From IMG/VR virus record IMGVR_UViG_2636416187_000004, positions 10,448 to 74,447 of that record: a DNA stretch of 64,000 bases; one strand, 5' to 3'. Source of the stretch: a virus (Duplodnaviria > Caudoviricetes). The position numbers were made by a program, and so were the translations under genes. The notes beneath the pieces are model-generated. The model was given only the letters and a program-made list of their open reading frames with translations. It ran no database searches and was not told the DNA's origin. Shown here piece by piece: positions 54,762-56,261 of the stretch; the stretch's first letter is position 1; every line of letters starts with the position of its first letter.

Positions 54762-54944
54762 ATGTTGAAAGAATGCAGATGTGGAAAATGCAACAGACTT
54801 CTCGCCCGGGTGGGTGAGTTTACCGAGCTCCAGATCAAATGTTCCCGATGCGGGACGTTGAATCATGAGAAGGCCACGAGCCTCGAGCGATCGCCTTTGA
54901 GCGACATGAAAGCGGAAATCTCCGCGAACAATCATTCGACTTAA
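54762..54944 (+). CDS. com: Mu Com-family zinc-finger translational activator
   Basis: RCGKCNRLLA..IKCSRCGTLN signature, 60 aa. Confidence 0.88.
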   Translation: MLKECRCGKCNRLLARVGEFTELQIKCSRCGTLNHEKATSLERSPLSDMKAEISANNHST

Positions 54945-54958
54945 AAGGTGAAAAAATG
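54868..54958 (+). promoter_or_regulatory. Duplicated translation-initiation leader, copy 1
   Basis: 28-nt identical core with 55336-55363; helix covers SD AAGGTG. Confidence 0.8.
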
Positions 54959-55282
54959 GAACCAGTAACTCTAGGCAAAAATTTCTATAACAGTTCGTCA
55001 TTGAGTCCGACCGTGATCATCAAGCCTGAAGATAACGTTGCAGGTGTCGTGATCCGCACGTGTACAGCCTTCGGTCCTTTCAACGCCGCGCTTATCACCG
55101 GCACCACTAAACCGACGGATGCCAATGACTTTTACACAAAGCCTGCCCTGCTCACTTTGGGAAGCGACACTATCCAGCTGCCGTATCCTGTTCAACTTCC
55201 GGCCGGTTTTGGGCTGTGGGCTATTGCGGTGAATGGCAATATTCGCGTGAGCTTGACCTACGACCTGTTGCCGAAGTCGTAA
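54956..55282 (+). CDS. 108-aa beta-rich cargo protein of unknown function
   Basis: AAGGTG SD; P.DNVAGVVIRT..LPYPVQLPAGFGLW. Confidence 0.75.
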   Translation: MEPVTLGKNFYNSSSLSPTVIIKPEDNVAGVVIRTCTAFGPFNAALITGTTKPTDANDFYTKPALLTLGSDTIQLPYPVQLPAGFGLWAIAVNGNIRVSLTYDLLPKS

Positions 55283-55313
55283 TTGAGCTCGCTCGACTCT
55301 TCAAAGTGCAACC

Positions 55314-55406
55314 AGAAGGTCAAGAACCTCTCACCATCGCCTTTGAGCGACATGAAAGCGGAATCCTCCGCTCAAAAATCATTCGACTCAATAGGTGAAC
55401 AACATG
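55314..55406 (+). promoter_or_regulatory. Duplicated translation-initiation leader, copy 2
   Basis: Homologous to 54868-54958 up to the ATG. Confidence 0.8.
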
Positions 55407-56261
55407 GCTGGACGTACACGTACTCCGTTTCAACGAAGCGGTACTTCGATTCTCCCTGCTTACCAAACAATGTCCGCAGGGCAGTTCCTACTTTCGCCAA
55501 ACGGCCGATTCAAGCTGTTGCTTCAAACAGACGGTAACCTGGCGTTGCAGGACAATGGTGTAGTGGTTTGGGTCGCCAACGAAGCTACGCCTTACTCCTC
55601 CACCGTACCATTACGATACAAGGTGCCGGTGCAACTCTACGTTCAATATGGCGCGTTTCTCGATGATCCGACTCGGGGGCGTACCTGGCTGACAAACAAC
55701 TCGACGTTCACCAGCGAGGATCAGTGGAACCGAACTCATATGTCGTTGCAGGACGACGGTAACATCGTGCTGATCGATTCTCAGGCGATTTGGAATGGCA
55801 CTCCATCCATTCCGCTTGATCCGACTTCCGGTGCAGTTCTGTTCGGGGGCCCAGCCGAGCTGCAGATGGGAATGCCTTACTTCTGTGGCGATGGTGCACT
55901 GATCTTTCAAGGTGACGGCAACGTTGTGAACTACGGGCCGAACTGGAGTGTTCGCTGGGCTAGCTACACCCAAAATAAGGGTGCAGTTAAGGCCGTTTTT
56001 CAGGCGGATGGTAATTTCGTGGTGTACGCGGCGAATGACGTACCGCTCTGGCAGGCAGGTACCGGCGGCCATCCTGGCGCTACTCTGCGTCTACAGCCAA
56101 ATGGCAATTTGTCGATTATTCAGGAAAGCCCGGTATGGGCTCGTTTCGGCTACACGCCGACTGTGCGTCGACGCAAGATCTACTACCCCGACACCACCAG
56201 TCCTGAACATAACGGTACCGCGCCATACCCAACCTACGGCCATATCGGTTGGGAGTTCTGA
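55404..56261 (+). CDS. llpA: Lectin-like bacteriocin (LlpA/putidacin L1 family)
   Basis: Tandem MMBL domains with QxDxNxVxY motifs ([31 protein letters not shown]); [17 protein letters not shown]; no signal peptide. Confidence 0.92.

Follow-up and report, generated by a model that had tools for sequence, protein, structure and literature searches.

Why should the 3′ end of a regulatory gene recur, without the gene itself, in front of an unrelated neighbor? The question is raised by a 64-kb stretch of DNA (hereafter, the window) that forms part of a 74-kb provirus record (IMG/VR IMGVR_UViG_2636416187_000004), in which com, encoding a homolog of the zinc-ribbon protein Com of phage Mu, is followed by two cargo genes, orf108 and the lectin-like bacteriocin gene llpA. 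The end of com runs up to the start codon of orf108 and recurs 446 nt downstream, there without com, at the start codon of llpA. We are highly confident that this repeated segment, which we call the leader, is a genuine and widespread structured RNA. We further consider it probable that the leader is a Com-responsive translational operator that is copied before each cargo gene and doubles as a recombination joint. The features on which the argument rests are the following (SD, Shine-Dalgarno sequence; CM, covariance model).

54762 to 54944, plus strand: com, encoding a 60-aa CCCC zinc-ribbon protein (PF10122, PHROG 6417).
54866 to 54961, plus strand: leader copy 1 (CM match of 113.7 bits; fold; pair counts).
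54871 to 54883, plus strand: copy 1 hairpin A, AGGC[CACGA]GCCU.
54891 to 54904, plus strand: copy 1 hairpin B, UCGC[CUUUGA]GCGA.
54912 to 54925, plus strand: copy 1 hairpin C.
54932 to 54951, plus strand: copy 1 3′ arm, with the SD AGGUGA at 54946-54951.
54956 to 55282, plus strand: orf108, encoding a 108-aa protein of the commonest cargo family.
55312 to 55409, plus strand: leader copy 2, com-less (CM match of 94.8 bits; fold z score of −5.0).
55317 to 55329, plus strand: copy 2 hairpin A, AGGU[CAAGA]ACCU.
55337 to 55350, plus strand: copy 2 hairpin B.
55358 to 55371, plus strand: copy 2 hairpin C.
55379 to 55398, plus strand: copy 2 3′ arm, with the SD at 55393-55398.
55404 to 56261, plus strand: llpA, encoding a 285-aa protein (NF033557, B_lectin, PHROG 19296).

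The two copies share 84% identity between 54868-54925 and 55314-55371 and 86% between 54927-54955 and 55374-55402, and pairwise alignment shows an unbroken 28-nt identical core (ATCGCC...GCGGAA) in both. Copy 1 ends at the orf108 ATG (54956) and copy 2 at the llpA ATG (55404); similarity between the window copies, and among leaders generally, stops at the ATG plus ~3 nt. The original prediction, made from the window sequence by itself, had described both the repeat ending at the ATGs of different genes and the identical core, and on these points it holds. Comparison with relatives defines a leader unit of ~95 nt. Its first element is hairpin A, whose 4-bp stem carries a C-NN-GA loop; a linker of 8-9 nt leads to hairpin B (UCGC[C-NNN-GA]GCGA); and hairpin C follows, surrounded by a long helix formed between the hairpin B sequence and a 3′ arm carrying the SD, 4-8 nt before the ATG. 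Copy 1 overlaps com codons 36-60, and the com stop codon (54942-54944) lies inside its 3′ arm. Copy 2 has no com coding sequence upstream; orf108 stops at 55282 with no open reading frame (ORF) continuing through the helix, and hairpin A is here closed by U-A, not C-G. These are the only two CM matches on either strand of the window and, by BLAST, the only two copies in the whole provirus record. A cmscan of 53500-57500 against Rfam (E ≤ 1) returned no match over either leader.

Both copies are predicted to fold into one long hairpin in which UCGCCUUUGAGCGA is paired with the SD-bearing arm. Minimum free energies (MFE) of the 76-78-nt cores are −23.5 (copy 1) and −26.5 kcal/mol (copy 2), with z scores against dinucleotide shuffles of −3.6 and −5.0, respectively. 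In ensemble folds the SD AGGUGA is unpaired with a probability of 0.06 in copy 1 and 0.05 in copy 2, and with hairpin B imposed these values become 0.45 and 0.22; this ON state costs 7.3 kcal/mol in copy 1 and 8.2 kcal/mol in copy 2. Pairing of the SD arm had been proposed earlier for both copies, and the same long hairpin appears in the MFE folds of each. Finer details of that proposal are likewise visible in the sequence and folds: the inner GCGGA/UCCGC stem is kept while its loops differ (AAUC versus AUCC), and a G-U pair becomes G-C (GAG/CUU to GAG/CUC). Hairpin A, at the 5′ end (54871-54883 and 55317-55329), was absent from that account; it carries the clearest covariation. Among related loci, pairing of the hairpin B arm with the ribosome-binding site (RBS) of the cargo gene averages −14.2 kcal/mol (n = 137), compared with −10.4 kcal/mol (n = 355) for other SD-bearing RBSs of the same loci, a comparison whose p value is overstated by the mutual relatedness of the cargo sequences. 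One variant leader with a different inner hairpin and 3′ arm retains the same architecture (z = −3.5). In silico, then, the default fold of the leader is a translation-inhibition structure in which the hairpin B sequence is paired with the SD arm.

Whether such a structure is under selection can be asked of its relatives. We collected Com relatives from IMG/VR (257, of which 80 loci were kept) and from one-per-species genomes (111, of which 80 were kept). A leader CM (R1) gave 103 matches in 81 sources (the window plus 80 genome loci) and 93 matches in 80 sources, all on the com strand; combined, these represent 177 distinct contexts and 176 distinct leader copies from 161 Pseudomonas loci. 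The CM searches replaced a first fuzzy-motif scan, which had returned 106 plus-strand matches, 12 of them dropped as noise, and 7 minus-strand matches. Two alignments were analyzed: a MAFFT alignment of 69 distinct canonical leaders, from which three variant classes were excluded, and a set of 101 distinct model-aligned matches from the one-per-species genomes, which is fitted to the model and hence biased toward structure. An automatic zinc-finger test found that 153 of the 177 contexts overlap a com ORF and called 24 com-less; on reading, com coding sequence proved to lie upstream of five of these 24 and a decayed remnant upstream of one more, and the contexts without intact com number 19 of 177. 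For comparison with com-linked copies, we aligned 17 distinct com-less leaders, 16 without com similarity upstream and one behind the decayed remnant. The CM search of Pseudomonas genomes suggested at the outset has thus yielded 177 contexts, among which the duplicated, com-less form recurs independently.

In the MAFFT alignment, hairpin A, 99.3% paired, shows compensatory changes at each of its four pairs (18 cells); in hairpin C, one of five pairs covaries (G-C to C-G, 5 cells); and hairpin B shows no variation. The overall covariation score is 0.073 versus 0.043 in shuffles, none of 500 of which reaches the observed value, and the real structure is 93% paired compared with 34-43% for slid controls. 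The long SD helix is 89.9% paired and mostly invariant. Among the 101 model-fitted, structure-leaning leaders, 16 of 27 pairs change on both sides versus 7.3 in shuffles (0 of 500), including all five pairs of hairpin C. The earlier claim of selection on RNA structure, for which an absence of covariation among homologous leaders was to be the counterevidence, is therefore borne out by hairpin A, with its changes at four of four pairs.

Much of the leader is also coding sequence, and its conservation could in principle reflect protein constraint on the C-terminal tail of Com, given that copy 1 and the 153 contexts noted above overlap the com ORF. The codons speak otherwise. Synonymous sites of com vary less in the tail that overlaps the leader (0.064) than they do in the zinc finger (0.146; one-sided p = 0.0125), and at codon 39, in the hairpin A loop, the amino acid varies freely while the third base, G, is invariant. 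Moreover, 19 contexts lack an intact com, and linker insertions break the frame. Coding constraint consequently fails to explain the conservation; already contradicted by the com-tail codon pattern and by the com-less copies, it receives almost no credence from us.

The com-less copies also speak to a second alternative, that copy 2 is a recombination scar, a leftover com 3′ end from a recent insertion of orf108. Copy 2 does read in frame as a com-tail remnant (SPLSDMKAE), a close relative of the window (L183) has a single-leader form between flanks 93-97% identical to those of the window, and another locus (L154) has a leader behind a decayed com remnant. Divergence among the 17 com-less leaders is, however, strongly patterned: differences from the com-linked consensus amount to 49% in the linker, 51% in the 5′ flank, and 30% in the hairpin A stem, but only 2% in the hairpin B arm, 5% in the hairpin C stem, and 8% in the 3′ arm. 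All 68 hairpin A pairs in these copies are intact, across at least five different stem sequences. The pattern is not that of a neutrally decaying duplication remnant, the outcome that had been named as damaging to the original prediction, and com-less copies occur in many species, behind different upstream genes and in both gene orders. We therefore consider a scar very unlikely. In the locus with the decayed remnant (L154:4683-4780), the zinc-finger remnant occupies the 40 nt upstream of the leader, and by its sequence this locus resembles an intermediate form, standing between the com-linked copies and the com-less ones.

What would the structure respond to? The com product matches Pfam Zn_ribbon_Com (PF10122; E = 3e-19, 68.6 bits versus a cut-off of 22.9) and PHROG 6417, annotated "translational regulator," and com is the sole PF10122 gene in the provirus record (six-frame search, 67.6 bits). 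Close relatives of the window Com in named genomes all belong to Pseudomonas, except for one Ectopseudomonas contig and one metagenome-assembled genome labeled Pararhizobium. Com activates translation of mom in Mu (Hattman 1991; Wulczyn & Kahmann 1991; both as cited in PMC6483171; this and the other published reports below are represented by excerpts). Using systematic evolution of ligands by exponential enrichment (SELEX), electrophoretic mobility shift assays, and SHAPE probing, Nowacka et al. (2019, PMC6483171) report that Com binds 5′-CC(N)2-3GAG-3′ in a short, C-G-closed hairpin loop beside the inhibition structure, and that a bipartite motif was often seen. In the Mu genome (L181), the site reads AUGC[CUGCGA]GCAU at com codons ~35-41, and the inhibitory stem holding the mom GUG lies directly 3′ of it. 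In the window, hairpin A, at com codons 37-41, presents CC-AC-GAG, and hairpin B presents CC-UUU-GAG. CC-NN-GAG is found in hairpin A of 152 of the 176 distinct leaders and CC-NNN-GAG in hairpin B of 175. Both hairpins are kept even in Com loci with unrelated tails and 3′ arms, and they are the most conserved part of the leader in divergent classes. A tandem pair of Com-type hairpins occurs once in the window, against 0.11 expected. We treat the motif match not as proof but as a lead, one strengthened by position and conservation.

The parallels with Mu com-mom extend beyond the homologous zinc-ribbon protein (PF10122). In both, a 4-bp hairpin with a C-G-closed C-N2-3-GA loop lies at the same codons in the 3′ part of com, a structure appears to hide the start signals of the downstream gene, and the setting is late-phase phage expression. 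Unlike Mu, the window has two tandem Com-type hairpins, the second of which also supplies one of the two strands of the inhibitory helix; the leader precedes bacteriocins and other cargo rather than mom; and it is duplicated without com, before second or third cistrons and in remote arrays. The original prediction had held that no mom-like gene is present. We found no Mu Mom homolog in the provirus record at E ≤ 0.01, an empty result that is weak for this search, and orf108 and llpA are the genes that follow the leaders.

From these observations we propose a cassette with a constant head, com plus the ~95-nt leader, and a variable part of one or more cargo genes, each with its own leader. Com would recognize hairpins A and B by their C-NN(N)-GA loops, in the way that Mu Com recognizes its own hairpin, and its binding would trap hairpin B locally, free the SD, and allow the cargo to be translated. 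Because no com accompanies the second leader, both cistrons would be served in trans by a single Com protein. At copy 1, the helix has both arms within com and would also be opened by ribosomes reading com to its end, and translational coupling may add to, or replace, the action of Com. The repeated leaders would in addition act as homologous joints, the points where cargo genes enter, leave, or are rearranged.

Several observations weigh against this proposal. In the unbiased 69-leader alignment, two-sided change is confined to 2 of 18 SD-helix pairs. Of the 69 leaders, 22 and 26 lack the two outermost pairs of this helix, and 43 lack pair 33-82. Pairing of the hairpin B arm with the RBS in 39 non-canonical leaders averages −11.2 kcal/mol against −10.4 kcal/mol for the control (p = 0.04), and two variant leaders lack the fold altogether (z = −1.7 and +0.07); sequestration of the SD by the hairpin B arm in every leader class, which we had entertained, was accordingly dropped. 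The SELEX motif derives from Com of Haemophilus sputorum rather than of Pseudomonas (PMC6483171). Counting single Com-type hairpins gives 13 on one strand of the window and 6 on the other, versus 9.6 ± 3.6 in shuffles; they are as common as in shuffles, and the motif match was rejected as statistical evidence when taken alone. Translation of com through copy 1 could open the helix without Com protein. Finally, in P. syringae a premature stop in a plasmid-borne com left levan formation and secretion of the levansucrase Lsc unchanged (Srivastava 2012, PMC3899960; data not shown in that excerpted report). Other com copies in that strain could have complemented the mutation in trans. The only levansucrase-linked locus that we examined (L160), from a Pseudomonas species other than that of the lscB study strain, has weak arm-RBS pairing (−6.6 kcal/mol).

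Some of the same points would be accommodated by a leader that is functional but independent of Com, acting as a constitutive damper, an upstream-cistron coupling device, or an element in mRNA stability or processing, with Com operating elsewhere or regulating itself. Such a reading would account for the negative com-stop experiment on lscB (PMC3899960, as excerpted), for a copy 1 helix with both arms inside com and opened by ribosomes, for the 7-8 kcal/mol cost of the ON state, and for com-less arrays that lie megabases from the sole com of four genomes (G002, G046, G054, and G087). It leaves less room for the conservation of the Com motif in both hairpins across divergent classes, or for hairpin A, which lies outside the SD occlusion and is yet kept by compensatory change in com-less copies. 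Nor does any upstream ORF pass through the copy 2 helix, and com is present in every leader-bearing genome examined. On balance we hold Com independence to be unlikely.

The distribution of leaders and com in whole genomes extends the question from one provirus to the cell. Among 121 genomes sampled evenly from the genus, 15 carry a leader (E ≤ 1e-5) and 33 carry com, and all 15 fall within the 33. This co-occurrence is largely expected from linkage; for remote arrays it is only suggestive. Leader and com matches number, respectively, 2 and 1 in G001, 6 and 1 in G002, 1 and 1 in G003, 3 and 3 in G004, 6 and 6 in G005, 3 and 1 in G046, 5 and 1 in G054, 2 and 1 in G085, 4 and 1 in G087, and 2 and 2 in G097. 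In the four genomes with distant arrays, two or three com-less leaders lie on a contig other than that of the sole com, or 1-2.6 Mb away from it, and reading the sequence upstream of these remote arrays revealed no zinc-finger coding sequence. An exact TACTG-N10-CAGTA palindrome, resembling a LexA-type SOS site, stands ~90-125 nt before the first leader in four arrays (L168:1398-1417; L172:1399-1418; and L263 and L264, on the reverse strand). These arrays comprise two or three leaders heading LlpA, orf108-family, or 213-aa secreted cargo, with the sole com of the genome elsewhere.

We tentatively speculate, while regarding it as rather doubtful, that com and the leader constitute a trans-acting regulon in which one com, as a rule located in the late region of a prophage or tailocin, unlocks all leader-bearing cistrons, including remote arrays with SOS-box-like promoters, the leader again doubling as cassette joint. 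This would form an AND gate of DNA damage, read at transcription, and commitment to lysis, read at translation. If true, the gate would confine the synthesis of bacteriocins without a signal peptide to cells destined for lysis, which would release them.

The cargo itself is varied. Fourteen families stand directly after the leader in the 177 contexts: the orf108 family (62 contexts), LlpA (53), DUF642 secreted proteins (12), 320-aa DUF6242 proteins (12), colicin M-like proteins (8), 82-87-aa proteins (7), GH5 cellulase (4), 213-aa secreted proteins (4), a 78-aa ORF (2), and, in one context each, an alginate lyase, an S-type pyocin DNase, a levansucrase, an endolysin-like protein, and a 60-aa ORF. 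Divergent leaders were seen in Com loci L142:3177-4910, L118:3199-3924, L157:3197-4375, and L160:3198-4490, where the cargo is an S-type pyocin with a DNase domain, an alginate lyase, a GH5 cellulase, and a levansucrase, respectively. Two or three leaders are present in 20 of the 81 genome-set sources, and both gene orders, orf108-llpA and llpA-orf108, are found.

The close relative L183 offers a direct view of exchange. Its arrangement is com-leader-llpA, with a single leader whose 5′ end resembles copy 1 and whose 3′ end resembles copy 2, so that the window has orf108 and one leader extra, the difference expected from recombination between leaders. The L183 leader (L183:2290-2425) also has one base fewer between hairpins B and C (GAC-TGAAT versus GACATGAAA); the loss shifts the com-tail frame and leaves the hairpins in place. 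Arrays of two or three structured repeats in the same orientation, each flanking one gene, combined with presence/absence polymorphism of the cassette, call to mind integron attC-type sites, and the repeats might be recombination sites of that kind instead of translational operators. Against this, they are conserved in sequence and not in structure alone, they contain an SD and end at an ATG, and com, a coding gene, includes their 5′ half; we consider the attC reading highly improbable. The proposal that the leader heads interchangeable cargo, on the other hand, finds ample backing in these 14 families, spread over many Pseudomonas prophage and chromosomal loci.

Phage morons are accessory genes inserted between late genes with a terminator of their own, and the borders of the cargo region suggest an insertion of this type. 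The features outside com, the leaders, and their cargo are as follows.

54534 to 54559, plus strand: terminator-like hairpin and T run, the cassette left border (terminator scan; empty-site loci).
54557 to 54761, plus strand: conserved cassette head upstream of com (BLASTN).
54580 to 54608: perfect 12-bp palindromic hairpin within the cassette head (repeat/hairpin scan).
56376 to 56419, plus strand: terminator-like hairpin repeating the left-border terminator, the cassette 3′ tail (direct repeats; scan 56388-56413).
56499 to 56825 and 56822 to 57169, plus strand: two holin-like genes (PHROG 2359; PHROG 2508, "holin").

In relatives without the cassette, the left terminator is ~10 nt from the holin RBS. 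Two such loci (L184 and L204) align as precise empty sites, with window position 54561 joined to 56478 and the left terminator abutting the holin RBS, placing the cassette bounds at ~54562-56477. The left terminator region (54523-54612) is repeated at 56376-56419 with 74-95% identity over pieces of 15-31 nt, so the cassette is bracketed by imperfect terminator direct repeats, and similar terminator-like sequence was found 3′ of the cargo in 10 of the 80 genome loci. With holin genes directly downstream, the cassette sits at the head of the lysis/late region; among 80 holin-anchored prophage loci, 10 have leader matches and 70 do not. The best explanation is a moron-like cargo cassette in a lambdoid Pseudomonas prophage, flanked by a terminator on one side and the holin genes on the other. 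It is like a moron in its presence or absence at a precise terminator-holin site and in the terminator copy at its 3′ end. It differs in also carrying, as we propose, its own post-transcriptional regulator and operator.

Upstream of com, BLASTN matches the 205 nt at 54557-54761 to 23 of 80 Pseudomonas genome loci that carry differing cargo; identity is 74-100%, the matches stop at the com ATG or close to it, and this segment appears from its sequence to travel together with com. A promoter scan found no sigma-70-like site between 54560 and 54761, and the candidate promoter inside the cassette head was dropped.

Part of this picture has precedent. A com homolog precedes ~90% of llpA genes outside P. 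aeruginosa (Ghequire 2018, PMC6240691; Ghequire 2015, PMC4684702), and the same excerpts list further com-linked cargo of tailocin and prophage clusters, namely colicin M-like proteins, unknown genes, a lytic enzyme, and glycosyl hydrolases, while stating that the role of Com "remains to be explored." The present locus resembles those clusters in having com followed by llpA, with other cargo able to follow com; relative to the gene-level account given in those excerpts, the RNA structure, the com-less leader copies, and the arrays are the points of difference. In P. syringae, PAPE is a mobile ~500-bp head that includes com and lies directly upstream of varied secreted-enzyme genes, among them lscB/C (Srivastava 2012, PMC3899960; Khandekar 2014, PMC3973379). 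As excerpted, these reports interpret PAPE as a promoter, find Com dispensable for lscB (PMC3899960), and describe PAPE as extending 48 nt into the downstream ORF, where it supplies a common N terminus. Judged by the published description of PAPE in PG4180, the co-traveling of com and its upstream region in 23 of 80 genome loci is similar, as is the inclusion of a levansucrase locus (L160) among the com loci. In contrast to PAPE as described there, similarity between the two window copies, and among leaders, stops at the ATG plus ~3 nt, with no common N terminus.

The idea of a portable com switch is partly supported, as to the cassette head and cargo exchange, and is less new than it first seemed, since com-cargo linkage and a mobile com head are already published. 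Within the literature searched, a body that leaves most subscription journals outside, we found no description of the RNA element or the com-less copies, and so far as the excerpted reports extend, these are what is new here. We regard the system as a variation on the Mu com-mom mechanism and not as a new category.

A defined 95-nt candidate operator makes the role of Com, called unexplored by Ghequire (2018), directly approachable. If the proposed control by Com is real, it would explain how bacteriocins without a signal peptide are timed to lysis, would extend the single-gene switch of Mu com-mom to a portable, multi-target regulator-operator pair, and would provide a compact protein-responsive translational switch for Pseudomonas engineering. 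Should Com prove irrelevant, the leader would still be an undescribed, widespread structured RNA and a cassette joint.

The two cargo proteins of the window differ in how readily they can be named. LlpA matches NCBIfam NF033557 (putidacin L1 family lectin-like bacteriocin) over residues 9-285 with 420.1 bits against a cut-off of 275, along with Pfam B_lectin (32.6 bits versus 32.4) and PHROG 19296. The orf108 product has no match in Pfam, PHROG, or NCBIfam. Its AlphaFold2 (AF2) model is an all-beta sandwich (pLDDT 93) without a fold match at E ≤ 0.001; the best hits (E = 1.2e-2 in PDB and 3.1e-3 in BFVD, TM ~0.5) are weak structural matches to beta-sandwich proteins, and its protein neighbors in the Atlas are unnamed viral clusters. 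An unnamed cargo protein linked to com was found in a tailocin preparation (Ghequire 2015, PMC4684702, as excerpted).

Beyond the cassette, a NinG gene lies upstream (Pfam). A 231-aa protein (53044-53739) was considered as a late regulator and set aside, having matched only PHROG 3412, of unknown function, in searches of Pfam, PHROG, and NCBIfam. A 145-aa ORF on the minus strand (57249-57686), for which no match was obtained in Pfam, PHROGs, or NCBIfam, separates the holin genes from a phage metallopeptidase gene (58058-58681). The first holin-like ORF is longest when read from 56346; its actual start is probably the ATG at 56499, which is preceded by GGAG, since the PHROG match begins at residue 52 and cassette-less relatives are conserved only from ~56478. 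Lastly, an Rfam Proteo-phage-1 RNA (RF03044) is found on the plus strand at 54330-54408, scoring 72.9 bits against a gathering score of 42, between a terminator that follows a 115-aa membrane ORF and the terminator at 54534-54559. From its position we would guess that it is a late-operon leader, and the region is kept in cassette-less relatives L184, L185, and L204.

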